Positions 47,626 to 64,000 of a DNA stretch of 64,000 nt are shown one piece after another. The notes under the pieces are model-generated. The model saw nothing but the letters and a program-made list of their open reading frames with translations, was not told the origin of the DNA and did not search any database. Both the position numbers and the translations under genes were made by a program. Position 1 is the stretch's first letter. Each line of letters begins with the position of its first letter. Where the stretch lies: contig CAWDVR010000002.1 of NCBI GenBank assembly GCA_963805975.1, forward strand, positions 704,001 through 768,000. The letters run 5' to 3'. This DNA comes from an uncultured Acidobacteriota bacterium. GTDB lineage: Bacteria; Acidobacteriota; Thermoanaerobaculia; Multivoradales; SZUA-115.

Positions 47626-50600
47626 ATGCCAAGCTCGAAGCTCGCCGGCCTGCTGGTTCGCGTGGAGGCGGGGGCCGGCCCCTCGCTGACCGACCATGCC
47701 CTGGGCGCGGCGGCGCCCGCCCTGGGAGCGCTGGGCTTCGCCGGGTTAGAGCCCCTCTTCACGGTGCCGGCGGGAGACGGCGCAGAGCCGGGTGTCGCGC
47801 CCGGCCCGCCGGCCGCCTGGTTCCGCGCCCCCCTCGCGGGGCCGGCCGGCGCTTCGCCCTGGGACCTCGTGCACGAGGCGGCGGCCAGCGGCCTGGGTTT
47901 CGCCGCCGGAAGCGGCGTCTACGTCGAGCCGGATCTGGAGCAGACTTTCCTCACCATCGCGCCGCGCGAAGGCCTCGCGGCCAGCAGCCACGAGGGCGCA
48001 GTCGACCCGCCCGACCCCTCCCTGCCCTCCCGTGCCGATCTCGCCTGGTTCCTGGGCGACGAGTTCTCGCAGCTCGCGGCGGCGAGGGCGGCGGCCGGCG
48101 ATCCCGGAGTCGGCCTGAGGGTCCGTATCGCGCACCTCGACACGGGCTTCGACGCCCGGCACTCGACCGTGCCGGCCCATCTGCGCACCGACCTGCAACG
48201 CAACTTCGTCGACGGCGAGCCGCCGGGGGACGCGCGGGATCCGGGCATCGACACCAACAACCCGCTCGACAATCCTGGGCACGGCACCGGCACGCTCGGC
48301 ATCCTGGCCGGCAACCGGGTGGCGGAGCTCGGCGATTTCCTCGGCGGCGCGGCGCTCGCGGAGGTGGTGCCGATGCGCATCGCCAAGAGCGTCGTGCTGC
48401 TGCGCACCAGCGCTCTCGCGAGAGCCCTCGACCACGTGAGCGGCGGCCTCGCCGGGCAACGCCTGGCCGACGTGGTGTCGCTCTCCATGGGCGGCGTCGC
48501 CTCCCGAGCCTGGGCCGACGCGGTGAACAAGGCGTACGAAGCGGGCGTCTGCCTGGTGGCGGCGGCGGGCAACAACTTCTCGGCCGGCCTCTTCGGCGTG
48601 CCGACCCGCTTCATCGTCTACCCGGCGCGCTTTCGGCGGGTGATCGCGGCCTGCGGCATCATGGCCAGCCGCGAGCCGTACTTCGGCCTGCCCTTCGGCA
48701 AGATGCAGGGCAACTGGGGACCGGCGAGCAAGATGGCGACAGCGATCGCCGCCTTCACCCCCAACGTGCCCTGGGCGGAGCTCGGCGCGCCGGCGATCGT
48801 CGACCGCAATGGCGCCGGCACCTCGGCCGCGACGCCGCAGGTGGCGGCGGCCGCGGCGCTGTGGCTAAGCCGGCACCGGGCCCAGGTGGCGCAGTACGCC
48901 CACCCCTGGCAGCGGGTCGAGGCGGTGCGCCATGCGCTGTTCACCGGCGCCGACAAGACCGCCGACGGCGGCAAGGCCGACAAGCTCGGCAACGGCATGC
49001 TGCAGGCCGCCCGCGCGCTCGCCATCGCGCCGCTGCAGGCGCCCGCGATGACGCCGCGCGACTCGGCGGCACTCGCCTTCCTGCGCGTCGTCACCGGCCT
49101 CGGGGTGGCGCCTTCGCCGCGCACCGAGATGCTCGCCCTCGAGGCCACGCAGCTCGCCCAGCTCGGGCTGGGCGCCGGAGAGCCGAACCCGTTCGAGAGC
49201 CTGGTGCCCGATCCGGACCTGCCGGCCTCGGCCATCCCTCCTACCCGGCGGCAGCGCTTCGTCGAGGCCCTGATCGAGCACCCCGCCGCCTCGCGAGCCC
49301 TCAAGGAGCACCTGCGGGAGACCTATCGCGGCGCCTACGGCCCACCGCCCACCCCGGGCAAGGCAGCCAAGCGGCAACCCCTGGCGCCCCAGACTCCTGA
49401 CCGAGGCCGACGGCCGGCAGAGGCCCCGTCGCGACGGCAGCCGGCAGGGGGCTACGCCTCCGAGCCCGTTGCCCGCCGCCTGCGCGGCTATGCCATCGAC
49501 CCCAGCCTGGAACAGCGCCTGGAGACTGCACCGATCAGCCGGGTCACCTTCACCGTTCCGTGGGAGAAGCTCGCACCCGGGCCGGTCGGCGAGTACCTGG
49601 AGGTGGTCGACTACGACCCGGCCAGCGGCTGCTTCTACGAGCCGGTCGACCTCGACTTGCCCAACCTGCTGGCGCAGGACGGCCTGCCGCCGTCCGAAGG
49701 CACGCCGCAGTTCCACCAGCAGATGGTCTACGCCGTGGCCATGCTGACCATCCGCAACTTCGAGCGGGCGCTCGGCCGCAAAGCCCTGTGGGCGCCGGGG
49801 CCGCCGCCGGAAGGCGCGCGCCCGAAGAACGACTCACGCTACGTGCAGCGCCTGCGCATCTACCCGCACGCCCTGCGCGAGGCCAACGCCTACTACAGCC
49901 CGACCAAGAAGGCGCTGATCTGTTCGGCTACTTCCCGGCCTCGGGCGACGACCCCGGCGGGCACCTGCCCGGCGGCATGGTCTTCACCTGCCTGTCGCAC
50001 GACATCATCGCCCACGAGACGACGCACGCCCTGCTCGACGGCATGCACCGCCGCTTCATCGAGCCCACCAACCCGGACGTGCTGCGCCTTCCACGAGGCG
50101 TTCGCCGACATCGTGGCGCTGTTCCAGCACTTCACCTTCCCCGAGATCCTGCGCCACCAGATCGCCCGCACCCGCGGCGACCTCGCGTTCGCAACAGAAC
50201 CTGCTCGGCCGAGCTGGCCGAGCAGTTCGGCCAGCTCGACCGGCATGCGCGACGCCCTGCGCAACGCCATCGGCCGCTTCGAGAACGGCGAGTGGAAGCC
50301 CGCCCAGCCCGACCCCAAGCAGTACGAGGTGACGACCGAGGCGCACGAGCGCGGCGCCATCCTGGTGGCGGCGGTCTTCGACGCGTTCCTCGTCGATCTA
50401 CGAGTCGCGGGTCGCCGGACCTGCTGCGCATCGCCACCGAGCGGCACCGGGCGTGCTGCCGCCGGGCGCCATCCACGCCCGACCTCGTCAACCGCCTCGC
50501 CGAAGCGGCCGCCAAGTCGGCGCAGCACGTGCTCACCATGTGCATCCGCGCCCTCGACTACTGCCCGCCGGTGGACCTGACCTTCGGCGAGTACCTGCGC

Positions 50601-51306
50601 GCCATCATCACCGCCGACTACGACCTGGTGCGCGGACGACGACCTGAACTACCGGATCGCCTTCATCGAGGCCTTCCGCCGGCGCGGCATCTACCCGCGC
50701 GACGTGCGCACGCTCTCGGTCGAGAGCCTGCGCTGGTGCGGTCCCCACAACGACGAGCACCGGCCCTCGGAAGCTCTGCTGCGCGGCCTCGAGAAGCTGC
50801 GCGACCATGCTCTGTTGCACGTCCACGCGCGGTCGCGGGAAGAGGTCTTCTACCTCGCCAGGGCGATGCGGCTCGACATGCACGACTGGCTCGAGGATCA
50901 CTTCGCCGCGAGCGGCACGAGCGGGCAGGACGCCGAGTTCCTGGGGCTCGACCCGAAAGTCGGGAGCTTCGAGATCCACTCGCTGCGGGTGGCCAACCGG
51001 GTGAGCCCCGACGGCGATCTCCTGCGCCAGGTGATCATCGAGATCCTGCAGGACAAGGAGGTGGCGGTGCACCCCGAAGACCCGAACGGCGAGAAGACCG
51101 TGGTCGAGGGCGGCTGCACAGTGGTAGCCGACCTCCAGCGGCTGCGAATCAACTACTGCATCCGCAAGAACCTGGCGAGCAAGGGCCGGCTGGCGCGGCA
51201 GCAACAGTACGTGGCGCGCTTCGGCTCCGGTTCACTGCACGCCACGTACTTCGGCAACGACGCGGCGCTCCGCGAGCCGGTCGCCAGTCTGCATCGCAGC
51301 GCCTAG
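47626..51306 (+). CDS. Cytoplasmic S8 subtilase fused to a thermolysin-like (HEXXH gluzincin) domain; multiple indels at about 49915-50640
   Basis: AAGGAGGT RBS; no signal peptide. S8 triad IAHLDTG / GHGTGTLG / GTSAATP and AAAGN. Then NAYYSP, LSHDIIAHETTH (HEXXH at 50013-50027), AFHEAFAD, HERG and RALDYCPPVD, read across shifting frames to the stop at 51306. Confidence 0.8.
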
Positions 51307-52971: not shown

Positions 52972-54822
52972 ATGTCGATCCGACGCAGCACCGCGATCCT
53001 GGCGCTGGCCCTGATGCTCGTGGCCGGCACCCCCATGCAGTTGCTGGCCCAGGAGGCCGCGGCCAAGGCTCCCACCGCACCACAGGACCGGCGCGGGTTC
53101 GGCGGTCCGCTACCCGCCTCCGCAGTGCCGGGCTCCACGGCCGAGCGGCAGGCCGCCTGGAACAGCCTGACCCCGAAGGAGCAGGAGCAGAAGATCGAGG
53201 AGTTCCTCGAGCGGGTCGGGCCCGCGGTCCAGCGGGAGGCGGCCGAGAGAGCGCGGCGGCCGCGGCCCGTGCCGGCCCAGATCGTCGCCGGGCGCCCCGG
53301 CGAGGCGGTCTACACCCAGCCGACCGCCGTTCCCGCCGAGGGCGCGCGGCTCTCCTTCACGGGCGCGGCGCAAGCGCCCATCGAGCCCTGCTGGGAGCTG
53401 TCCTGCGGCTACAACGAGCCGCCCCAGGTCTTCGCCTCCGCCTCACCGCAGAGCGGGGCGGCGCCGCTCACCGTGAGCTTCTCCGCCTACGCCTACGACC
53501 CGGACGGCTACGTGACCAGCCTGTTCTGGAGCTTCGGCGACGGCGGCTATTCCTACGACTACCACCCCACCCACACCTACACCGCGGCGGGCACCTACTA
53601 TGCCGAGGTCTCGGTGACCGACGACCAGGGAGCCTCGGCATGGTCGTCGGTGGCGATCACGGTCGGCGGCGGGGGCGCCAACCAGCCGCCGCAGGTGAGC
53701 CTCGGCGGCTCACCGCTCGTCGGCTTCGGGCCGCTCAACGTCTCCTTCAACGCCTACGCCTCCGATCCGGACGGCTGGATCGCCTCCTACGCCTGGAGCT
53801 TCGGCGACGGCGGGTCGGCCGCCGGACCCGCGTCTCTCTCGCACACCTACACCACGGCGGGGATCTTCACGGCGAGCGTCACGGTGACGGACAACGCGGG
53901 CGCCACCGCCACGGCCTCCGCCACGGTCAAAGTGAGCGGCTCCACCTCGGATGCCGACCAGGACGGCCTCGACGACGGCCTCGAGGCGCAGCTCGCCTCG
54001 GGCTTCATGCCGATCTACCACGTGTCGGCCGGCGAGCAGCCCGGCACCGGCTTCGCACGCTTCCAGGACACGGCCTCGCTCGCCATTCTCCAGAACCTCC
54101 CGGCGGTGCCGCCGGCGGTCCACTGGCGGGTCTCGCCCCTCTTCGTGGCGAACCTCAACGGCGTGCCGCAGCAGTTCCTGCAGATCGACTACCTGACGAT
54201 CTGGAACCGGGACGACGGTCTCGAGATCGGCGGCGTCTGCCGCTTCGAGGCCGCGGTCCTGGGCGGGCTGGTGGGGTTTGGCCTGGTATCGGCCCTGGAT
54301 GGCCTCTTGTCGCACCCGCTCGACCCGGAACGGTCGGCCGTGCTCGTCTCGGCGCCGCTCGCCGGGGCCGGGGACCCCAACTCCTACCGCTCCCTCTCCT
54401 ACTACCTGGCCTCGCACGAAGGCACCTTCACCGACCACAGCATCTATTTGCCGCCTCCATACCCGCTGCCGCCCGGCAACCACGCCCTGATGTGGCACTC
54501 GAAGTCCAAGCACGCCACCTACGAGTTCAACCCCGACTACTTCCCACTGATCCCCAGTTGGGTGATCTACGCAACCTACTTCACGATCGAGGACCTGTAC
54601 TGGTTCGGCTGGATCGACTACTGGGACTACCTGATCTACCTGTCGATTGCCGACTCGGTGTTCTTCTCCTGCATCGTCGAGCACTTCTCCAACCAGGGAG
54701 GCTCGCTGCCCAGCTTCGAGCTCAACGTCGGAGAGAACGGCCGGCCGCTCAACGGTTCGAGCTGGATCGCGGACTCGCGCGTCGCCGAGAAGCTCCAGCC
54801 GCTCTGGATCCTGGTGAACTGA
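52972..54822 (+). CDS. Secreted protein with two PKD domains and an uncharacterised C-terminal domain
   Basis: AAGGAG RBS; signal peptide; two APLTVSF..D.DG....WSFGDG...HTYT.AG....VTD repeats; DADQDGLDD; C-terminal HPLDPE, YYLASHEG, SKHATY. Confidence 0.85.
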   Translation: MSIRRSTAILALALMLVAGTPMQLLAQEAAAKAPTAPQDRRGFGGPLPASAVPGSTAERQAAWNSLTPKEQEQKIEEFLERVGPAVQREAAERARRPRPVPAQIVAGRPGEAVYTQPTAVPAEGARLSFTGAAQAPIEPCWELSCGYNEPPQVFASASPQSGAAPLTVSFSAYAYDPDGYVTSLFWSFGDGGYSYDYHPTHTYTAAGTYYAEVSVTDDQGASAWSSVAITVGGGGANQPPQVSLGGSPLVGFGPLNVSFNAYASDPDGWIASYAWSFGDGGSAAGPASLSHTYTTAGIFTASVTVTDNAGATATASATVKVSGSTSDADQDGLDDGLEAQLASGFMPIYHVSAGEQPGTGFARFQDTASLAILQNLPAVPPAVHWRVSPLFVANLNGVPQQFLQIDYLTIWNRDDGLEIGGVCRFEAAVLGGLVGFGLVSALDGLLSHPLDPERSAVLVSAPLAGAGDPNSYRSLSYYLASHEGTFTDHSIYLPPPYPLPPGNHALMWHSKSKHATYEFNPDYFPLIPSWVIYATYFTIEDLYWFGWIDYWDYLIYLSIADSVFFSCIVEHFSNQGGSLPSFELNVGENGRPLNGSSWIADSRVAEKLQPLWILVN

Positions 54823-54905: not shown

Positions 54906-55169
54906 ATGCTCGAGCCGCTCGCCCGCCTGCTGGTCTACGGGGCCGAGGCCTACCTCGGTCTGGGGCTGGCCTTCGCCTTGGCCTTCGTCTTCGTAGGCGC
55001 CGGGCGGATCGATCCGCAGGCGCGCCGGGGAACGCTCGGCTTCCGGCTCCTGATCCTCCCGGCCTCGGCCGCGCTCTGGCCGCTCCTCGCCTGGCGCTGG
55101 GCCCGAGGCACACCGCCGCCCGAGGAGCACAACGCGCACCGCGACGCGGCACGGGCGGCAGGCCCGTGA
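54906..55169 (+). CDS. Small 2-TM membrane protein
   Basis: YLGLGLAFALAFV..G..RIDP.A.....FRLLILP....LWPLL; first gene of an operon. Confidence 0.75.
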   Translation: MLEPLARLLVYGAEAYLGLGLAFALAFVFVGAGRIDPQARRGTLGFRLLILPASAALWPLLAWRWARGTPPPEEHNAHRDAARAAGP

Positions 55170-55312
55170 TCCTGCCGCTGCGCCGCCGGCACCGCCGGTA
55201 CTGGGTCGCCCTGGCGCTCCTCCTGCCGGCCCTCTACCTGGCCGCGCTCCTCGTACGGCCGGCGCCGCCGAGGATGGACGCGCTGCCCCCGGCCCTCACC
55301 ACGACACCCTGA
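55166..55312 (+). CDS. Small single-TM protein (48 aa; below the ORF-track cutoff)
   Basis: GTGA overlap with the upstream stop; MILPLRRRHRRYWVALALLLPALYLAALLVRP...; ends 10 nt before the next start. Confidence 0.6.
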   Translation: MILPLRRRHRRYWVALALLLPALYLAALLVRPAPPRMDALPPALTTTP

Positions 55313-55322
55313 CGAGGTCCGG

Positions 55323-56363
55323 ATGTCACACGCCTACCGGGCCGTCGGCTGGAACCGCCAGAAGAGGCTCTACGACGGCGTGGTCGCGGCCGGGATCGGG
55401 CTCTACCTCGCCGTCTTCCTGGCCGTGGGCTTCTGGCGGGACGCGAACGCCACCGCCGAGACCCTGCTCCTGCGGGCGCTCGGCACCTGCGCGCTCCTCC
55501 TGCTCCACGGGGTGCTGTCGATCGGCCCGCTCTGCCGGCTCGACCGCCGCTTCCTGCCGCTGCTCTACAACCGCCGTCATCTGGGTGTCGCCCTCTTCCT
55601 GGTGGCGCTGGCGCACGGGGTGCTGGCCATCGTCCAGTTCCATGCTCTGGGGGTCGAGCACCCGCTGGTCTCGGTCCTCACCAGCAACGGCCGGTACGGC
55701 AGCCTCGCCCAGTTCCCCTTCCAATCCCTGGGGCTCGCGGCCCTGGTGATCCTCTTCCTGATGGCCGCCACCAGCCACGACTTCTGGCTCGCCAACTTGA
55801 CGCCGCCGGTGTGGAAGGGCCTGCACATGCTGGTCTATCTCGCCTACGGGCTCCTGGTGCTGCACGTGGCGCTGGGGGTGCTCCAGGCCGAGACCGACCC
55901 GGCGCTCGCCCTGCTCCTGGGCGCCGGCATGCTGTGGCTGATCGGACTTCACCTCGCGGCCGGCTGGGGCGAGCGCACCGGCGACCGGCCGGCTCCCGGC
56001 CGTGTGGCTGCAGATGGCTTCGTCGAGGTGGCGCGGGTGGACGAGATCGCCGAGAAACGGGCCAAGATCGTCCAGCTCGGGGGTGAGCGGGTGGCCGTGT
56101 TCCGCTACGACGGGCGGATCTCCGCCCTCTCCAACGTCTGCCGGCACCAGAACGGCCCGCTCGGCGAAGGCCGCATCGTGGACGGCTGCGTGACCTGCCC
56201 CTGGCACGGCTTCCAGTACCGGCCGGAAACCGGCGCCTCGCCTCCTCCGTTTACAGAGAAGGTGCCCACGTTTCGGGTGCGGGTCGACGCCGGCCGGGTG
56301 CTGGTGCACCCCACCCCCAACCCGCCGGGGACCTACACCGAGCCGGCAGCGATCGCGCCATGA
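55323..56363 (+). CDS. Ferric-reductase-like (MsrQ-type) transmembrane domain fused to a Rieske [2Fe-2S] domain
   Basis: RRHLGV...AH, ATSHD, WKGLHMLVY...LH (candidate heme His); CRHQNGPL...CPWHG. Confidence 0.88.
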   Translation: MSHAYRAVGWNRQKRLYDGVVAAGIGLYLAVFLAVGFWRDANATAETLLLRALGTCALLLLHGVLSIGPLCRLDRRFLPLLYNRRHLGVALFLVALAHGVLAIVQFHALGVEHPLVSVLTSNGRYGSLAQFPFQSLGLAALVILFLMAATSHDFWLANLTPPVWKGLHMLVYLAYGLLVLHVALGVLQAETDPALALLLGAGMLWLIGLHLAAGWGERTGDRPAPGRVAADGFVEVARVDEIAEKRAKIVQLGGERVAVFRYDGRISALSNVCRHQNGPLGEGRIVDGCVTCPWHGFQYRPETGASPPPFTEKVPTFRVRVDAGRVLVHPTPNPPGTYTEPAAIAP

Positions 56364-57142
56364 TCTCTCCCGAAGACACCCCCTTCTACATCGGCTATCA
56401 GAAACAGGCGGCGCCGGAGCTGGCCACCTTCCTGCGCTGGCTGGTCCTCGGCCTGCTCGTTGCCGCCGCGGCGCTGGCAGCTTTCCTGCCCACGCGCCAG
56501 CAGCCGTTCGACGAAGGCACATTCGAATACGGCTACGTGCGCGACTTCCTAGGAGTGATCCGGGAGCGGCCCTACCCCGCGCTTTCCGTCGCCGCCACCC
56601 CCATCGAGGGCCCGGGCGCTGCCCCCGGCCAATCGAGCTATGATCTGGTCGCCACCGGAAAGCGAGGAGCTGCGCGAGAGGTCGAGGGGCTCGACGGACG
56701 GTGGGCCACGCTTCGCGGCAGCTTGATTCACCGGCAAGGGAAGACCATGGTCGAAATGGTCCCCGGGTCTGCTGCCGCCTTGGAGCACGACAGCGAGCCC
56801 GCCGCCCCGGCTGAAGCCGGCCGCGAGGAGGTCGCTCAACTGACGCTGGTAGGGGAGATCGTCGACAGCAAGTGCTTTCTGGGCGTGATGAAACCCGGCC
56901 GGGGCAAGCCGCACCGCGACTGCGCCGCTCTTTGTATCCGGGGCGGCATCCCGCCGCGCTTCGTGGTGCAGTCGGCGGACCGCCTGCTCGCCCTGCTGCT
57001 GGTCGATGAGGAGGGTGGACCGGTGAACGCGCGCGTGCTGGACAAGGTGGCCGAGCCCCTGAGCGTGACGGGGCGGGTCTGGAGGGTGGGGGGCGAGCTG
57101 CTCCTCGCCGCGGACCCGGCGACCTACCGCCGCCTGGACTAG
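56360..57142 (+). CDS. Membrane-anchored protein with a DSKC-x13-C-x3-C motif
   Basis: FYIGY, then one TM; GEIVDSKCFLGVMKPGRGKPHRDCAALCIRGGIP; ATGA-coupled to the Rieske gene. Confidence 0.75.
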   Translation: MISPEDTPFYIGYQKQAAPELATFLRWLVLGLLVAAAALAAFLPTRQQPFDEGTFEYGYVRDFLGVIRERPYPALSVAATPIEGPGAAPGQSSYDLVATGKRGAAREVEGLDGRWATLRGSLIHRQGKTMVEMVPGSAAALEHDSEPAAPAEAGREEVAQLTLVGEIVDSKCFLGVMKPGRGKPHRDCAALCIRGGIPPRFVVQSADRLLALLLVDEEGGPVNARVLDKVAEPLSVTGRVWRVGGELLLAADPATYRRLD

Positions 57143-57161
57143 ACCGCCGGAGCCGACGCCG

Positions 57162-57971
57162 ATGCTGCCCGAACCCGCCGAGACATCACCGGTGCCCCAC
57201 TACCCGCCCCACCCCGACCGCCTGCCCTCGGGCCACGCCGAGCAAGGCCGCTACCGGGCGCGCTTCGCGCGCACCGGGGCAGAGCTCGACGCCATCCTGC
57301 GGCTGCGCTTCGAAGTGTTCAACCTGGAGCTCGGGGAAGGCCTCGAGTCCTCCTACGCCACCGGCCGCGACGAGGACCGCTTCGACTCCACCTGCCACCA
57401 CCTGCTGGTCGAGGACACCCGGAACGGCGGTGCCATCGTCGGCACCTACCGCATGCAGACCAACGAGATGGCGGCGGACGGCGGCTTCTACACGGCCGGC
57501 GAGTTCGAGCTCTCGACGCTGCCGCCGGAGGTGATGGTGGGGTCGGTCGAGGTGGGCCGTGCCTGCATCGCGCGCGAGCACCGCAACCGGCAGACGCTCT
57601 TCCTGCTGTGGAAGGGCCTGGCCCTCTACATGATCTTCAACCGCAAGCGCTACCTCTTCGGCTGCTGCTCGCTGACCAGCCAGGACGGCTGCGAGGGCCT
57701 GGCCGCGCTCGCCCATCTCGAGGCCGGCGGCTTCCTGCACCCGGCGGTGAAGGTGCCGCCGCTCCCCGGCTTCGAGTGCGAGTGCGAGCGCCCGCTGCCG
57801 AGCGCGCCCGAGAGCTTCGAGCTGCCGGTGCTGTTCAAGACCTATCTGCGCTACAACGCCCTGGTGTGCGGACCGCCGGCCATCGACCGCGAGTTCAAGA
57901 CCATCGATTTCCTCATCCTGTTCGACATCGAGGCCATGGAACGCCGCACGTATGATCTCTACTTCGCGTGA
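57162..57971 (+). CDS. GNAT N-acyltransferase, OlsB (ornithine N-acyltransferase)-like
   Basis: LRFEVFNLELGEG, DEDRFD..CHHLLV, IVGTYR, EVGRACI, YLFGCCS, PAIDREFKTIDF. Confidence 0.85.
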   Translation: MLPEPAETSPVPHYPPHPDRLPSGHAEQGRYRARFARTGAELDAILRLRFEVFNLELGEGLESSYATGRDEDRFDSTCHHLLVEDTRNGGAIVGTYRMQTNEMAADGGFYTAGEFELSTLPPEVMVGSVEVGRACIAREHRNRQTLFLLWKGLALYMIFNRKRYLFGCCSLTSQDGCEGLAALAHLEAGGFLHPAVKVPPLPGFECECERPLPSAPESFELPVLFKTYLRYNALVCGPPAIDREFKTIDFLILFDIEAMERRTYDLYFA

Positions 57972-58005
57972 ACGCCCTGAGCGCGACGACGATACGGGAG
58001 ATGCC

Positions 58006-58539
58006 ATGAACTGCGACCGCACGCTCAAGGGCGACAACATCCACTTCCTGAGACAGGGGGTGGTGCTGCTCGAAGGGCTGAGCGACGCCCTCTACGCCTC
58101 GCCGCCCCCCATCCGGCTCTCCCCGGTGGGCGCCCATCTGCGCCACTGCCTGGATCTCTACACCTGCTTTCTCGCCGGCTTCCACAGCGGGCGCGTGGAC
58201 TACGACTCTCGGAACCGCGACCCGCTCCTCGAGACCGACCGCGGCTATGCGCTCGACGCCCTGGCGAGCATCATCCGGCGGCTCGAAGAGAGCCCGCTCG
58301 AGGAGCAGGACCGGCCGCTCCTCGCGGCCATGGACCGCGGCGCCGGCGAGCAGGGCGAGGCCGCCTTCAGCACCACCAGCGTGCGCCGGGAGCTGCAGTT
58401 CCTGCGCAGCCACACCGTGCACCATTACGCGCTGATCGCCGCCGTGCTGCGGGTGCAGGGCCACGAGCCGCCGGCGGACTTCGGCGTCGCGCCGGCGACG
58501 CTCACCTACCGCCGCGAGACCGCGGGCGCCCAGACCTAG
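58006..58539 (+). CDS. DinB/YfiT-superfamily metal-binding protein
   Basis: VGAHLRHCLD, VDYDSRNRD, RELQFLRSHTVHHYALI, FGVAPAT. Confidence 0.85.
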   Translation: MNCDRTLKGDNIHFLRQGVVLLEGLSDALYASPPPIRLSPVGAHLRHCLDLYTCFLAGFHSGRVDYDSRNRDPLLETDRGYALDALASIIRRLEESPLEEQDRPLLAAMDRGAGEQGEAAFSTTSVRRELQFLRSHTVHHYALIAAVLRVQGHEPPADFGVAPATLTYRRETAGAQT

Positions 58540-58543
58540 GCTC

Positions 58544-61145
58544 CTACTTCAGCCCCTTGGCCTGGCGGCGCCGGAAGTCGATCAGCCGCCGCGCGAGCGC
58601 CGGGAGCGATACGGGCTCGACGCCCCGCTCGCGGTTCAGGCGCCCGATCTCGAAGGCGAGCCGCCACTGCTTGAAGAGCGTGCGCCAGGCGACCAGCACG
58701 CTGTTGGCGGGATCGTAGATGTGGGTCGCCTCCGAGGTGACCCCGTTGAGCTCCAGCACGCAGGATCTGCTCGCCCTGGCGCGCCGCCTCCTCCGAGGGC
58801 ACTCGCAAATCGAAGCGGCCGAAGTAGAAGCCGTCGAAGCTCCGGCTGATGCGATCGATCGCGGCTTCGAGCCGAGGCGTCACCAGATCCCGGCCCTCCA
58901 GAAAGACGGCACCCCGGCAGTGGGTGCCGAGATCGGTCAGCCGCACGGCCTCACCGGCCCTCGGCACCTCCTCCGCGCGGGTCCCGAGCCCCGCCAGATA
59001 GGCGTCGGCGGCGCAGACGGCGCGGTCGTCGGCCAGGATCAGCTCCTCCACCGTGCGCTCGCCGTCCCCCACCACCGAGGGCAGGAGCTTCCGCGTGGTC
59101 GAGAACACGCTCCCCTTCTCCTGGCCCGGCAGGCGCACGTAGAAGACGCCCAGCTCGACGCCGCCGACGTGCTCCTGCACCACGCAGTCGAGGGGGATGG
59201 CGGCGAGCGCGGCGGCGAGCTCCGCCTCACTCCGCGCCACCAGCACACCGAGGCCGCGCTGGCCGGCGTCCGGCTTCACCACCACGGGAAAATCCAGCCC
59301 CTGGGCGGCCATGAAGGCGTGGGCCCCTGCCAGGCGTTCGACGAGAGAGGCTGCCGCCGGCAGGCGCGCGTAGCGGGCCACCGACCGGGGCTCGAGGTGG
59401 TCGAGGATCGCGCCCTTGGACTCGCCGATGAAACCCGACGCCGGCATCCCCGGGTTGGCGGCCGTGAAAAGCGTCGGGCTCCGATGCTTCAGGCCCAGCC
59501 AGAGGACGTACGCCACCACCGGCGGATAGAACATCCACGGCGGCCAGAACTCCCAGCGGAGCTTTCTCTGCAGGGCGCCGTAGAGGCGCCGCCGGCCGCG
59601 CCAGGTGGCGAGGGGCAGCGCCAGCTTGATCAGCAGGTACAGCCCGACCGCCAGCAACAGCAGGCCGCCCAGCGCCCGGCCGCGGAACAGCTCGAGCTGC
59701 TCCAGCGCGCGGGCCCCGGCCCAGGTGGCGAAACCCACCAGGATCGGCGTCCACACCAGCGCCGCCAGCGTGAACCAGCCGGCGAAGCGCCAGAAGCCGG
59801 CGCGCACCAGGCCGGCGCCCACGTAGGTGGCGAGCCGCGTGCCGGGGAGGAAACGGGTGGCGAAGACGATCACCGGACCCTTCTCTTCCAACCAGCGAGC
59901 GCCCCTCTCCACGGCTTCCGGCTTGATCCACCACTTGAGCGGCGCCCGTTGGAGCCCCGCCCGCCCCAAGAGCCGGCCGATCCCGTAGAGCGCCAGGTCC
60001 CCCACCACGATGCCGGCAAAGCAGGCCAGCGTGGCGGCGACGAAGGAAAGCCGCCCGTGTGCCACCAGCACCCCGGCGGCGATACAGGTCAGGTCCTCGG
60101 AGACGAGGGTGGCGAAGGCGAGTAGCGCCGCCAGCACCAGCAGCGTCACGCCGGCCGCCCGCGGCACCCCGTGAGTGTCGAAGGGTTGCGCCGCCGCCGC
60201 CAGGCGCTCGGGGCTGGCCATGGCACGGGTCGGCTCCTCGCCCCGCTCCACCCGTTCGACGAACTCCGTGATCGGCCGGGACAGGCGCTCGCTGCCCGCG
60301 AAGACCATGAAGTGGCTCTCGTCGAACAGCACCAGCTCGCTCTGCGGCACCAGGCGATAGCTCTCGCGCGCTGCCTCCACCGGCACCAGGATGTCGCCCT
60401 GGCCGTGCAGGATCAGCATCGGTACTTGCAGGCGGCCGAGGATTTGCCGCAGGGGGCGCTGATCGCTGTCGAAAAAGTTGCGGGCGTACTCGCGCGACAG
60501 CATGCCGCCGTCGAAGAGGCCGAAATGCGGCACCGCCTCGAACATCAGCCAGAGCCCGGCGAGCTGCGCGCCGTGCAGGGCGTGGTTGACGCGGTAGTCG
60601 CCCAAGAGCTCCAGCTCCTGGACGCCGATCGCCGACAGCATCGTCACCGAGGCCACCTGCCGCGGCCTTTGGTCGGCAAGCTCCAGAGCGACCCCGCCGC
60701 CCATCGAGAAGCCGAGCACGTGGGCGCGGTCGATCCCGAGCGCAGCCATCAGCTCGCCGGTGTAGGCCGCATGGGCGCGGATCGAGTAGTCCGGCACGTC
60801 GTGGCTCGAAGCCCCGAAACCGGGCAGGTCGGGAGCCACCACGCGGAACCGCGCCGCGAGCTCCGGCCCGAGGTTCAGGAAATCGCGGCTGCTCCCCGGG
60901 CTGCCGTGCAACAGGACGAGCACCGGCGTCTCCGGCCCGGCACCGGGCGGCGCCCACTCGCGATAGGCGACGAGCACCTTCGAGGGCAGAAGCTTCGTGC
61001 CGGTGGCGGCCGACACCTCGATCGTCGACAGGGCGGCGAGCGAAGGCGGTGCCGGAGGCTCGAGCCTGCGCACCCCGTGCGACGCGGCGAGCAGCACCAG
61101 GTAGGCGACGAGCACCCAGCGCAGGCAGCCCCGCCGCCGGGTCAC
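58544..61145 (-). CDS. Triple fusion: alpha/beta hydrolase, DedA/VTT membrane domain and ATP-grasp ligase (one +1 frameshift at about 58762)
   Basis: Hydrolase: LLHGSPG, GFSMGG, HGQGD, SHF. DedA: [27 protein letters not shown]-grasp: [26 protein letters not shown]. Removing one base gives [19 protein letters not shown]...AKGLK*. Confidence 0.88.
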
Positions 61146-61161
61146 GGAGGTTTCCAGGAGA

Positions 61162-61923
61162 TCACCTTCCGGACGCGAGCTGGAGGGTGTCGGCCGCCGT
61201 GCGCTCGAGCACGAGCGGTGCTCCGAGGGGGGCCTTGCACGGCGAGCCCGCGGCGTAGAGGAACGTGACCTCGCCGGCCGCCACCCGGACCCAGGAAAGG
61301 CTCACGCTCTTGGCGTCGCTCCGGTGCATGCAGGGCGAGTAGGGCCCGCGCTCCGGCCGATGGCTGCGATGGAAGTCGAGCAGCAATTCCGCCGAGAGCT
61401 CGCCGGAATCAGCGCGCATCTCGGCGAGCAGGGCCGTGCGCTCGCGGGCGGCACCGGGTGCGTCGAAGCCCGAGGAAGAAAGCGGCATCGGAGGGCCGGT
61501 GCCGAGCTCGAGCCGGCGCTCGCCGGTCCACTGCCAGGCGGCCTGCTCTCCCCCCGGTGCGAGCGCCAGCAGCGTGAACGGCCGAAAGCGGGAGAGATCT
61601 TGCCGGAAGAGTGCCGCCTTCGCCTCGGCGACTCCCGTTGCGGAGGCCAGCCTGCTCACCAGGTGGCCGCGGCTCTCGAACGCTCCACCGGCCGGCGCCG
61701 CGGGCACCGGCGCCTCGTAGAGGTTGAGCAGGCAGAGCCCGAGCCCCAGCTCGTTGACGGCGATCCAGCTCCCGCCGGCCTCGCCGTCCTCCGGGGCGAG
61801 AAAGCGCACCCCGTCCCGCCGTTGGAGCCGAGGTGGTGTCGCGGGCCGACGTAGGCGCGACTCGTCGCGGTTCGAGAGCAGCTCGTAACCGCCCGGCGTG
61901 AAGACCCAGCTCACCGTGCACAC
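61162..61923 (-). CDS. NRDE/TANGO2-family protein (Ntn-hydrolase-like)
   Basis: MCTVSW (Cys2), NRDE, GGSWIAVN, LLN, SRG, PFTL. Confidence 0.9.
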   Translation of the reverse strand: MCTVSWVFTPGGYELLSNRDESRLRRPATPPRLQRRDGVRFLAPEDGEAGGSWIAVNELGLGLCLLNLYEAPVPAAPAGGAFESRGHLVSRLASATGVAEAKAALFRQDLSRFRPFTLLALAPGGEQAAWQWTGERRLELGTGPPMPLSSSGFDAPGAARERTALLAEMRADSGELSAELLLDFHRSHRPERGPYSPCMHRSDAKSVSLSWVRVAAGEVTFLYAAGSPCKAPLGAPLVLERTAADTLQLASGR

Positions 61924-61934
61924 GGCGGGAAATC

Positions 61935-63395
61935 CTAGCAGCCCGGGCCAGCGGTGCCGCCGAGCACTTCTTCCGCCGCGGCCCGCAGGTCTTCGAGGCA
62001 GGCTTCGAGCTGCGCGCGGTGGGTGCGAAAAGAAAGGACGCAGATCCGAATCACGAACCCGCCGGCCAGCTCGGTGCCGGTGAGGAACACCCGCTGGCGG
62101 GCGTTGATGCGAGCGAGGAAGCGATGGTTCAGAGCGTCTATCTCGGCCCCGTCGAGCTCGACGCCTCCCCTGGGGGCGGGCCGCAGCCGGAAGGCGAGGA
62201 GCGAGAGCTGGGGCTCCGCGACGATCTCGATGCCGGGCACCACGCGGAGCGCCTCGGCCGCCCAGGCCGCGAGGTCGAGCTTCTCGTCCAACGCCTCGCG
62301 AAAGGCGCCGGCGCCCGCGAGCTTCAGGGGCAGCCAGACGCGCAGCCCGCGGAAATCCCGCGACAGCTCGGGCGAGACCTGGCAGAAGTCCGTGAACTCC
62401 GGCGACGCGGAGAGGTGGCGCATGTAGTCGGCATCCACGGCGTGGGCGCGGTGCAACGCGGCGCCGTCGCGCACCAGGAGGCAGCCGGTGCCGTAGGGCA
62501 GAAAGAGCCCCTTGTGCGGATCGAGCGTGACCGAGTCCGCCCGCTCGATCCCCGCCATGGCCTGGCGGCCGCGCTCGGTCAGCACGAAAAAGCCACCATA
62601 CGCGGCGTCCACGTGCAGCCAGAGGCCCTCGCGCGCCGCGAGGTCGGCGGCGGCGGCGAGGTCGTCCACCGCGCCGGTGTTGGTGGTGCCGGCGCTCGCC
62701 ACCAGGAGGAACGGCCGCAGTCCACGCCCGCGGTCCTCGGCGATCTGCCCGGCCACCCGATCGAGCCGCAAGCGAAAGCGGTCGTCGGTAGGGATGGATC
62801 GCACGTTCCGCGCCGGGAAGCCCGCCAGCGCCGCCGCTTTGGCCACCGAGTGATGAACCTGATCCGAGGCGTAGATGGTTCCGTCGAGGAAGTTCTCGGG
62901 CAGCCGCTCGCGCCGCGCGGTGACCAGCGCCGTGAAGTTGGCGAGCGAGCCGCCGCTCGACAGATAGCCGCCGGCCGTTTCCGGGTAGCCCACCATCCGG
63001 GAGAACCAGCGCAGGACGTTGGCCTCGAGCTCGGCGAGGCCCGGCGCCGCCTGCCAGACGGTCACGTAGCGGTTGACGCTGTCGGCGATCAGGTCGGCCA
63101 CCGCCGAATGAAAGAGCCCTCCGCCGGGGATGTAGGCGAGGTAGCCGGGGCCGGCGGTGTTGTAGCTCACCGGCACCAGGCGATCGAAGAGCAGGTCGAG
63201 GAGAGGGCCGAAAGCAGTGCCCTCCTCGGGCAGCGGCTCGCGCACCGAAAGCGCCAGCTCCGCACCCCGGCTGTCGTCGTAGCCCGCGGGCTGCTCGGGA
63301 AGCGAGGCGAGGTGCGCCACGACCCGCTCCATCGCCTCCGCAACCAGCTCGCGCATGGCTTCGGGTGTGGGTTCGAGAAGGTAAGAGCTTGTCAT
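61935..63395 (-). CDS. Group II PLP-dependent (aromatic amino acid-type) decarboxylase
   Basis: YLAYIPGG, SGGSLANFTAL, HHSVAKAA, AGTTNTGAVD, WLHVDAAYGG, DSVTLDPHK (PLP Lys). Confidence 0.92.
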   Translation of the reverse strand: MTSSYLLEPTPEAMRELVAEAMERVVAHLASLPEQPAGYDDSRGAELALSVREPLPEEGTAFGPLLDLLFDRLVPVSYNTAGPGYLAYIPGGGLFHSAVADLIADSVNRYVTVWQAAPGLAELEANVLRWFSRMVGYPETAGGYLSSGGSLANFTALVTARRERLPENFLDGTIYASDQVHHSVAKAAALAGFPARNVRSIPTDDRFRLRLDRVAGQIAEDRGRGLRPFLLVASAGTTNTGAVDDLAAAADLAAREGLWLHVDAAYGGFFVLTERGRQAMAGIERADSVTLDPHKGLFLPYGTGCLLVRDGAALHRAHAVDADYMRHLSASPEFTDFCQVSPELSRDFRGLRVWLPLKLAGAGAFREALDEKLDLAAWAAEALRVVPGIEIVAEPQLSLLAFRLRPAPRGGVELDGAEIDALNHRFLARINARQRVFLTGTELAGGFVIRICVLSFRTHRAQLEACLEDLRAAAEEVLGGTAGPGC

Positions 63396-63448: not shown

Positions 63449-63694
63449 ATGCGTATCTCGGTGGTTCTGCCCGATGACCTCGATGCCGACCTCGAGAGGG
63501 TCCGCCGACAGGAGCACGTGACGACCTCCAGGATCGTCCGCGACGCCCTCGTGTACTACCTCCGTGATCATCGGCGTCGCTCCGCAGGCGAAGCCCTGAA
63601 CCGCGCGGCGGATCGCTCGGGGATGACCGACGAGATGGTTCGCCGCGCACTCGACGAGCTGAAGGCAGAGCGTGCCCGTTCTGACCGGTCTTGA
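63449..63694 (+). CDS. CopG/RHH antitoxin
   Basis: MRISVVLPDDLDADLERVRRQEHVTTSRIVRDAL; overlaps a PIN gene. Confidence 0.85.
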   Translation: MRISVVLPDDLDADLERVRRQEHVTTSRIVRDALVYYLRDHRRRSAGEALNRAADRSGMTDEMVRRALDELKAERARSDRS

Positions 63695-64000
63695 CACAGG
63701 CGTCTTCGTCCTCCATTCGAGAGGTCATGCCGAGGCCGGCCGGTTGTGGGACGAGGCAGTCTCAGGCCGGCGGCAGGCCGTGGTCTCGGCGATCACTCTC
63801 TTCGAGCTCCTCCGGCTCGGTCTGCGTGGAACCGTGCCTCAGGAGTACACAGCCGTAGCGCTGAAGAGCATTCCAGGCGTCTGCGAGGTGGTGTGGATCG
63901 AGAACCTCGACCTGCTGAGCAGCGCAGGTCGCCTGAGCCACGGAGTCGGGCTCTCTTCGTCCGATGCGCTGATCCTCGCTTCGCTGATCGACCGTGAGTG
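63672..64000 (+). CDS. vapC: PIN-domain toxin, truncated by the window end
   Basis: Not in the ORF track. GTG 63672 gives MPVLTGLDTGVFV...VVSAITLFELL...GLSSSDALILASL, open to the window edge. Confidence 0.8.
   Translation, partial: MPVLTGLDTGVFVLHSRGHAEAGRLWDEAVSGRRQAVVSAITLFELLRLGLRGTVPQEYTAVALKSIPGVCEVVWIENLDLLSSAGRLSHGVGLSSSDALILASLIDRE

Follow-up and report, generated by a model that had tools for sequence, protein, structure and literature searches.

Do two short operons that converge in the genome of an uncultured Acidobacteriota bacterium belong to one pathway, and what would such a pathway make? The operons occupy positions 54,906 to 63,395 of a 64,000-nt stretch of contig CAWDVR010000002.1 (assembly GCA_963805975.1; order Multivoradales), which we call the window and whose numbering we use throughout. 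A preliminary description had read them as an undescribed amino-lipid pathway: on the plus strand two small membrane proteins, a ferric-reductase/Rieske fusion, a cysteine-motif protein (Cys protein), an OlsB-like GNAT acyltransferase and a DinB-family protein, and on the minus strand a pyridoxal-phosphate (PLP) decarboxylase, an NRDE/TANGO2 protein and a hydrolase-DedA-ATP-grasp fusion (the ligase). The locus is a real, widespread and uncharacterised cassette, most likely for the ligation and turnover of aminolipid head groups, to which an electron-transfer module, the first four plus-strand genes (the redox module), is facultatively linked. The analysis demonstrates which genes are present, how they are linked and co-occur, their folds and their conserved catalytic residues; the pathway steps built on these are all inferred. 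The joined reading, in which the cassette extends an aminolipid head group by ATP-dependent amide formation and the linked module serves the same lipid, is to us an evenly balanced proposition. In agreement with the earlier statement that no characterised pathway has this gene set, literature searches, whose coverage mostly excluded subscription papers, gave no paper describing it; screens reported only in supplements could mention the genes.

Linkage and co-occurrence of the cassette genes

With 1,626 clusters (50% identity, E up to 1e-30), the ligase family is a large one, and the loci analysed are its best-scoring ones, leaning to Acidobacteriota, with one collection being the best 80 of at least 578. 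Neighbours were counted in 144 non-redundant ligase loci, short contigs included, and a well-flanked subset comprised the 71 of 113 non-redundant loci that had at least 7.5 kb upstream and at least 4 kb downstream. Linkage in other genomes had been set in advance as the test on which the unity of the two operons would stand or fall, and they were found together: reductase, Cys protein, OlsB-like protein, DinB, NRDE and DedA all lie beside the ligase in 19 of the 71 well-flanked loci, and in eight of the 71, from three phyla (titles include Planctomycetota and Gemmatimonadota), the full set is on a single strand. The single-strand order, seen in several genomes, runs 87-aa protein, 48-aa peptide, reductase-Rieske, Cys protein, olsB, (olsA), dinB, nrde, hydrolase-DedA-ligase; judged by this order, the convergent arrangement in the window is a local rearrangement of a conserved cassette. 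Because the same genes adjoin the ligase in the 144 non-redundant loci (DedA 129, OlsB-like 101, DinB 96, hydrolase 86, OlsA-like 74, NRDE 71, Cys protein 45, DoxX-like 34, YHS 16, group II decarboxylase 3), the neighbourhood exceeds chance. The closest titled loci among the matches listed come from Thermoanaerobaculia and other Acidobacteriota, and the 40 ligase loci of the window's own order gave OlsB-like 32, DinB 25, NRDE 21, Cys protein 20 and reductase 19.

Gene arrangement varies around this theme. The convergent layout is present in a near relative, one contig of about 95% likeness that covers 56182-59922, and the two halves of the cassette lie about 20 kb apart in a genome of the same genus (G001). 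Two Vibrio records carry DedA, ligase, DinB, NRDE, YHS, DoxX-like and OlsF genes in one run, and in Paracoccus the three fused domains (hydrolase, DedA/VTT and ligase) are encoded by adjacent genes. No OlsB gene was seen near the Azospirillum ligase, and a metagenome scan with the Salinivibrio ligase as query returned no match.

Co-occurrence at the genome level was scored in 60 genomes of the order, own genome left out (ligase E < 1e-40, Cys protein E < 1e-20), of which 36 carried both ligase and Cys protein, four the ligase only, one the Cys protein only and 19 neither. The OlsB-like family PF13444 was detected in 38 of the 40 ligase-positive genomes, mostly as a single copy, versus none of the 20 ligase-negative ones. 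An even draw of 110 Acidobacteriota genomes contained 19 with an OlsB-like gene and 13 with the ligase, 12 of the latter also with the OlsB-like gene, so that the proposed coupling of ligase and acyltransferase was borne out at both levels. The Cys protein, our marker for the redox module, was present in seven genomes of this phylum sample, each also with ligase and OlsB-like gene, and in none of the 97 ligase-negative genomes; it was unlinked to the ligase in five of the seven carriers (one pair is 1.6 Mb apart on one contig). As a control, the frequent module neighbour Rieske-GltS occurred in 10 genomes of the sample, namely two of the seven Cys-protein carriers and eight non-carriers, and it was not found in the window's own genome (5.36 Mb in 6 contigs, 96% complete). 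In a sample of 150 Planctomycetota genomes the two were strongly, though not strictly, coupled (nine with ligase and Cys protein, eight with the ligase only and four with the Cys protein only), and among 47 ligase genomes in which the redox module is not adjacent, the Cys protein was located elsewhere in 32. On five ligase-bearing plasmid records it was not found, a result of little weight because the search covered the plasmids and not the chromosomes. This nesting, with the ligase inside the range of OlsB and the redox module inside that of the ligase, is what a pathway order would lead one to expect and is no proof of one.

The ligase fusion and aminolipid head groups

The fused protein (58544-61145, minus strand; Pfam/NCBIfam scan) consists of an N-terminal transmembrane (TM) segment, an alpha/beta-hydrolase domain with a predicted triad S147-D251-H278, a DedA/VTT domain (PF09335, E 2.5e-18, with two re-entrant segments read from the sequence) and the ATP-grasp ligase, in this order. 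From the distribution of charges, the ligase domain is predicted to be cytoplasmic and the hydrolase, behind the N-terminal TM segment, periplasmic. The intact G001 homologue was folded in place of the frameshifted window copy (see below), and its ligase domain was modelled with a pLDDT of 93.9. By profile and structure, the closest solved relatives are GshF, CphA1 and CphA2 (3ln7, 3ln6, 7wae, 7ta5), with a Foldseek match at E 1.5e-9, 16-21% identity and TM-scores of 0.36-0.51 to GshF/CphA. The ATP and metal residues (motifs KPD, QEY and ELNG) are in place: K98, P99, Q131 and E138 are invariant in 112 ligase sequences, and E272 and N274 are kept in at least 90% of them (G001-domain numbering), while the ELNG of the window copy is in the part of the ligase beyond the frameshift. 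Fold and residues uphold the assignment as an ATP-grasp enzyme.

The ligase shares the ATP-grasp fold and a VVGDG lid insertion with the C-terminal synthetase of GshF (GshAB) and with CphA1/CphA2, but differs from them in its partners. Neither the gamma-glutamylcysteine ligase (gamma-GCS) domain of GshF nor the N and MurE-like M domains of CphA were found in the fused protein by Pfam scan, the curated CphA models score 27-30 bits against cut-offs of 850-877, the family starts instead with a conserved hydrophobic, Trp/Pro-rich WEFWPP helix, and in most loci the ligase is fused to the membrane DedA domain, here also to the hydrolase. By partner domains and cut-offs, both read from sequence, the ligase is a member of neither GshF nor CphA. 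GshF and CphA activate an N-acylated amino acid by phosphorylating its carboxylate, to which they then join an amine. Because these relatives amidate such carboxylates and an aminolipid offers one, the ligase likely caps, by analogy, an aminolipid head group by placing a second amino acid or amine on its free carboxylate; that it acts in some form on the OlsB-made lipid we consider very probable.

The presumed source of that lipid is the OlsB-like GNAT (57162-57971, plus strand; PF13444, E 2e-27). It scores 124 and 120 bits against curated OlsB equivalog models with cut-offs of 350 and 320, but these models are narrow, and the second olsB of the genome likewise falls below the cut-off (139/350 bits). 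Cassette OlsB-like proteins form a clade of their own (support 0.937; 90 sequences, midpoint root), apart from that second olsB, which belongs to another clade and pairs on contig C3 (locus L218, G000:C3:751918-753686) with an OlsA-type O-acyltransferase (C3:752907-753686). About 55 bp ahead of this pair stands a direct repeat resembling a Pho box, a single and weak instance. The earlier remark that OlsA is missing is correct for the window and does not extend beyond it: besides the C3 pair, an OlsA-like gene is present in 74 of the 144 loci, joins the OlsB-like gene in 40 of 59 well-flanked loci and, in all 10 genomes tested that have none in the cassette locus, was located at another site. 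The missing OlsA is a local loss. Neither the OlsB-like protein nor DinB had a sequence match in the PDB.

In its PF13444 N-acyltransferase, its PF01553 partner (74/144 loci) and the OlsF of the Vibrio loci, the cassette resembles the OlsB/OlsA and OlsF pathway, differing in that its OlsB-like proteins stand below the curated cut-offs in a separate clade. We know of no aminolipid tailoring set, such as OlsC, OlsD, OlsE or OlsG, that includes a DedA fusion, DinB, NRDE or a heme/Rieske module. By analogy, the cassette may work like aminolipid tailoring combined with an MsrQ-like wire. Which enzymes put a second residue on aminolipids is a long-standing question, to which the ligase family would be a direct candidate answer by its chemistry, membrane tether and gene neighbours; it is testable in cultured hosts, e.g., Vibrio aquimaris THAF100 and Paracoccus denitrificans PD1222. 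OlsH and OlsI of Singulisphaera acidiphila offer a comparable combination of ATP-dependent amide formation with an alpha/beta-hydrolase-fold aminolipid O-acyltransferase (OlsI), but OlsH is a GH3 adenylating enzyme that forms the first amide (excerpts of PMC12493201), whereas an ATP-grasp enzyme beside OlsB would here make the second. Cerilipin is alike in the ATP-dependent amidation of a head-group carboxylate: taurine is transferred to ornithine lipid in an ATP-dependent step whose gene has gone unidentified since the 1970s (excerpts of PMC12971839). In the accessible part of the same 2026 aminolipid review the term ATP-grasp does not occur, and where it turns to other aminolipids, no enzyme is given for flavolipin's serine (PMC12971839); in the accessible part of a further aminolipid review the term occurs in a reference title only (PMC11631085).

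What the ligase would attach is addressed by the decarboxylases. The window's group II PLP decarboxylase (61935-63395, minus strand; PF00282) is of the aromatic-amino-acid type, with 4obu as best PDB match (230 bits). Its proposed place in the pathway has to be narrowed, as such a gene occurs in only 3 of 144 ligase loci (plus G001), which rules it out as a core gene. The opposite view, that it is wholly unrelated, was softened because the gene lies ahead of nrde both in G001, whose copy is missed by the locus count owing to a contig break, and in the contig of about 95% likeness. Genomes G002, G003 and G006 have only relatives of 39-45%, located elsewhere. The PLP decarboxylase is a lineage-restricted accessory gene, and since most loci have none, the nucleophile to be expected by default is a free amino acid. 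In genome G004, a radical SAM/SPASM gene (L032:12406-14139) sits between decarboxylase and nrde.

A further lead comes from one locus, L187, where an alkaline-phosphatase-like gene, a cysteine-sulfinate-decarboxylase-like (CSAD-like) gene, ligase, olsB and olsA follow each other on one strand (L187:4875-11107) with a DoxX-like gene convergent to them. The CSAD-like decarboxylase, immediately before ligase-olsB-olsA, scores 368 bits to 2jis versus 336 to GAD and is unrelated to the window decarboxylase (30%). This single locus is a candidate taurine-ornithine-lipid operon, as it combines the genes that making such a lipid would require.

The NRDE/TANGO2 protein (61162-61923, minus strand; PF05742) keeps C2, N18, R19, D20 and E21, which are conserved in 21 homologues, form a predicted cysteine Ntn-hydrolase site and match TANGO2 Cys2/Asn25/Arg26/Asp27/Glu28 (excerpts of PMC13044924). 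TANGO2 has been proposed as a Cys Ntn-hydrolase of fatty-acid derivatives (same excerpts). Cys2 and the N-R-D-E motif align the TANGO2/NRDE family with cysteine Ntn-hydrolases such as acid ceramidase, NAAA and bile-salt hydrolase; the copy described here differs from TANGO2 in being bacterial and operon-linked to aminolipid synthesis. This sets a homologue of TANGO2 in a defined context of lipid amides and is relevant to the dispute over what the human disease protein acts on. DinB (58006-58539, plus strand; Pfam scan) is present in 35 of 38 NRDE loci of the well-flanked set. It has a family-specific DYDxR motif and keeps H47, H136 and H140 in at least 90% of 25 homologues, a predicted metal triad assigned from the family and not from a structure match; its reaction appears to be the least clear step of the proposed pathway. 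The hydrolase and NRDE are anti-associated (21/30/17/3 in 71 loci), but the idea that they are interchangeable parts was not adopted because they are predicted to be on opposite membrane sides.

The redox module, a proposed mechanism and its rivals

In almost every locus examined, the four module genes are kept side by side. The first (54906-55169, plus strand) encodes an 87-aa orphan with two TM segments by TM scan, which precedes the reductase in almost every module locus and has invariant Y16, G20, G31, P52 and W58 in 31 homologues; the second (55166-55312, plus) encodes a single-TM peptide of 48 aa, whose homologues range from 45 to 200 aa and are often extended at the C-terminus by a soluble part. 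The reductase (55323-56363, plus) joins an MsrQ-like six-TM ferric-reductase domain (PF01794, E 2e-11), with H86, H98, H168 and H181 invariant in 22 sequences as predicted heme ligands, to a Rieske domain (PF00355, E 2e-17; C273, H275, C292, H295) predicted to be cytoplasmic by the positive-inside pattern. The 260-aa Cys protein (56360-57142, plus) has no Pfam match; it is TM-anchored, with a predicted periplasmic tandem OB fold (AlphaFold pLDDT 89.9) and D169, K171, C172, M177, H185, C188 and C192 invariant in an alignment of 116, likely a metal or dithiol site. Fold searches gave generic OB folds only (best Z 7.4), and its Atlas matches were unnamed or labelled DUF5666, with no shared Pfam domain. 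Reductase, Rieske and Cys protein form one chain in at least 12 genomes, with a seventh TM segment between the Rieske and Cys domains that puts these two on opposite membrane sides.

MsrPQ (YedYZ) is similar in its six-TM ferric-reductase-type domain with four conserved histidines, its periplasmic partner and the SigF/NrsF-type context of one Rhizobium plasmid. The module differs from it in having its own Rieske domain instead of a separate flavin reductase, a tandem-OB Cys protein instead of a molybdoenzyme as partner, and two extra small membrane proteins. With an MsrQ model score of 35.7 bits against a cut-off of 130, the module is, by partner domain and cut-off as predicted from its genes, not a member of MsrPQ. 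Its four genes seem to encode a heme-Rieske-Cys carrier of electrons across the membrane that has not been described before.

Combining these parts, the OlsB-like GNAT would N-acylate an amino acid (ornithine being the family default), and a second acyl chain would come from an OlsA encoded elsewhere or from the fused hydrolase acting like OlsI. The membrane-tethered ATP-grasp enzyme would then phosphorylate the free alpha-carboxylate of the lipid and join an amino acid or amine, which in the window lineage may derive from the decarboxylase. The fused DedA domain would bring the product over to the outer leaflet, for possible editing or re-acylation by the Ser-Asp-His domain; cytoplasmic NRDE would hydrolyse the amide for turnover, and DinB would perform a metal-dependent modification. 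Electrons would pass from the cytoplasmic Rieske domain via two b hemes to the Cys3-His-Met site in the periplasm, either for a redox step on the lipid or for its protection.

Several observations weigh against this joined reading. The redox module adjoins the ligase in just 45 of 144 loci, the Cys protein was not found in 15 of the 47 ligase genomes tested for it, and five sampled genomes (G019 and four of 13 Planctomycetota carriers) have the module and no ligase. The module of a Rhizobium plasmid has no lipid genes beside it. The Komagataeibacter ligase (L070:5073-8011) has heme-oxygenase-like (PF14518) and methyltransferase neighbours instead of lipid genes, and no OlsB was found within 7 kb of the Salinivibrio ligase. 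No Gluconobacter is among the named ligase homologues (Komagataeibacter, Novacetimonas, Gluconacetobacter and Acetobacter are named), the Gluconobacter cerinus genome not having been searched directly. Regulation through Pho boxes was rejected, as these are not enriched upstream of olsB, the 87-aa gene or dinB. The Fisher values for co-occurrence (5e-8, 2e-10 and 2e-7) overstate the association because kin share genes, so that genomes are not independent.

These points bear first on whether the module belongs to the lipid at all. It may instead be a separate, MsrPQ-like system against periplasmic oxidant stress that clusters with an otherwise unchanged lipid cassette through a shared role in envelope stress, which we consider doubtful. 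The module occurs intact alone, often beside Rieske-GltS or Rieske-TPP enzymes, and without ligase in the five genomes above; on the Rhizobium plasmid its neighbours are an ECF sigma factor, NrsF and a chlorite-dismutase-family gene, and SigF/NrsF controls yedYZ in reactive-chlorine defence (excerpts of PMC4436054). A SigF-like motif also precedes the SDR-redox operon in seven of eight Terriglobia-type loci. However, the module tracks the ligase better than its Rieske-flavoenzyme neighbour does (7/7 versus 2/7), also when unlinked, it is most often directly upstream of olsB in an adjacency that recurs over the ligase tree (45 of 143 tips, 21 changes), and no MsrP-like gene was noted in the annotated module loci. 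The description of the module as dedicated is thus right in so far as it is strongly nested in ligase genomes, and too strong in view of the Planctomycetota carriers without ligase and the Rhizobium copy among stress genes of the SigF/NrsF type.

Two further alternatives concern the product. Low-molecular-weight thiol systems share a parts list with the cassette: a GshF-like ligase, a DinB fold and an Ntn amidase. On this likeness, the cassette could make and recycle a sulfur antioxidant anchored in the membrane, a lipid comparable to glutathione or mycothiol. Cys or Met would be acylated by the GNAT or else added by the ligase, DinB would act as S-transferase, NRDE would cleave S-conjugates, DedA would flip the lipid, and its re-reduction in the periplasm would fall to the heme/Cys module. 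The three invariant cysteines of the reductase system, the joint occurrence of DinB and NRDE, the recurrent YHS (seleno)protein-family (16 loci), DoxX-like (34 loci) and rhodanese/SufE (four or five loci) neighbours and the one CSAD-like gene of L187 agree with it. We nevertheless judge it improbable: we know of no OlsB homologue that acylates Cys or Met and found no paper on such a reaction, DinB is absent from 48 of 144 loci, and six loci of family f8 combine the redox module with the ligase but contain neither DinB nor NRDE. A complete membrane redox-lipid cycle, with a sulfur-bearing dipeptide lipid made by the ATP-grasp enzyme, delivered by DedA to the periplasmic leaflet, kept reduced by the heme-Rieske-Cys3His module and conjugated and recycled by DinB and the TANGO2 homologue, is similarly a long shot; if true, glutathione would have a counterpart among lipids, and N-acyl amides would become a substrate class for TANGO2. 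Less probable still, the product would be no bulk membrane lipid but a small N-acyl peptide or another metabolite that is soluble or exported, leaving through DedA. The window locus, without OlsA and with an aromatic-type decarboxylase, would suit such a product, as would a Variovorax run of heme-oxygenase-like, methyltransferase, ligase, OlsB-like and MFS genes, the first three of which recur in Komagataeibacter, but the OlsA-like gene beside OlsB-like in 40 of 59 well-flanked loci, the OlsF fusions beside the Vibrio copies and the frequent fusion of the ligase to a membrane DedA domain speak for a lipid. The Variovorax run (L195:4092-9077; heme-oxygenase-like PF14518) and the Komagataeibacter locus are possibly a separate small-molecule pathway.

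Gene layout, promoters and flanking genes

All nine genes were recovered as open reading frames (ORFs) with the domains and spacing originally given. Successive plus-strand intergenic distances are -4, 10, -4, 19 and 34, the minus-strand gaps are 16 and 11, and the convergent stops are 4 apart. The reported 4-bp gap between the operons applies to the frame of the C-terminal 71 aa of the fused gene and not to its main frame, as the gene changes frame near 58760 in the sequence as assembled and these conserved 71 aa (58759-58544) sit in another frame. Contigs of about 95% likeness from 4 of 4 runs (3 studies) have one base fewer at 58760-58762, and DedA, ligase and C-terminal parts form a single ORF in 37 of 41 relative ORFs among the matches listed; the one-base frameshift near 58760-58762 is therefore probably an assembly error. 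A genuine pseudogene was considered and is unlikely, since these contigs of about 95% likeness, from all four runs, are without the extra base. The subtilase S8 gene upstream (47626-51306, plus) continues across several frames, a further hint of indel errors in the assembly.

No promoter common to the redox module emerged across 60 loci. Upstream of the SDR gene heading the redox operon in Terriglobia-type loci there is a motif GTAAC(C/T)-N16/17-(G)GAATC (L081:2752, L091:2747, L106:724, L116:2657, L124:3602, L127:1988, L142:1598 and L192:4992); the form ending in GGAATC is present in seven of eight such loci. It resembles the Caulobacter SigF (ECF16) promoter GTAACC-N16-CGAA (excerpts of PMC3511200) and was not seen upstream of the YHS-DinB-ligase operon in these loci. 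A bipartite GGAATA-N16-19-CATATA-like motif, which looks like an alternative-sigma promoter, occurs in 16 of 56 regions upstream of a cassette-leading olsB (L075, L090, L094, L107, L109, L113, L114, L117, L130, L131, L136, L137, L139, L144, L148 and L178), against 0.01 expected with a pattern derived from the same data. Neither motif was found upstream of the window operons, and the window region gave no sigma-70 site.

Fusion enzymes of the Rieske-GltS(FMN) and Rieske-TPP types are repeated neighbours of the redox module (L039, L043, L055, L056, L067, L157, L164-L166, L202 and L213), with a genome distribution that differs from that of the module. The Rhizobium leguminosarum plasmid mentioned above (L197:7897-14385) carries an SDR gene, the full module, TetR, an ECF sigma factor, NrsF, a chlorite-dismutase-family gene and a second NrsF, and five Rhizobium records carry the reductase. 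In the window, a PKD-domain protein (52972-54822, plus) lies immediately upstream of the module; G001 has the same neighbour (L154:2649-4436), and it was not seen as a cassette partner in loci other than these two. At the far end, divergent from the decarboxylase, a ribbon-helix-helix gene (PF01402) overlaps a PIN-like ORF that leaves the window (63449-64000, plus), a pair that resembles a VapBC-type toxin-antitoxin, with the PIN identity judged from the sequence.

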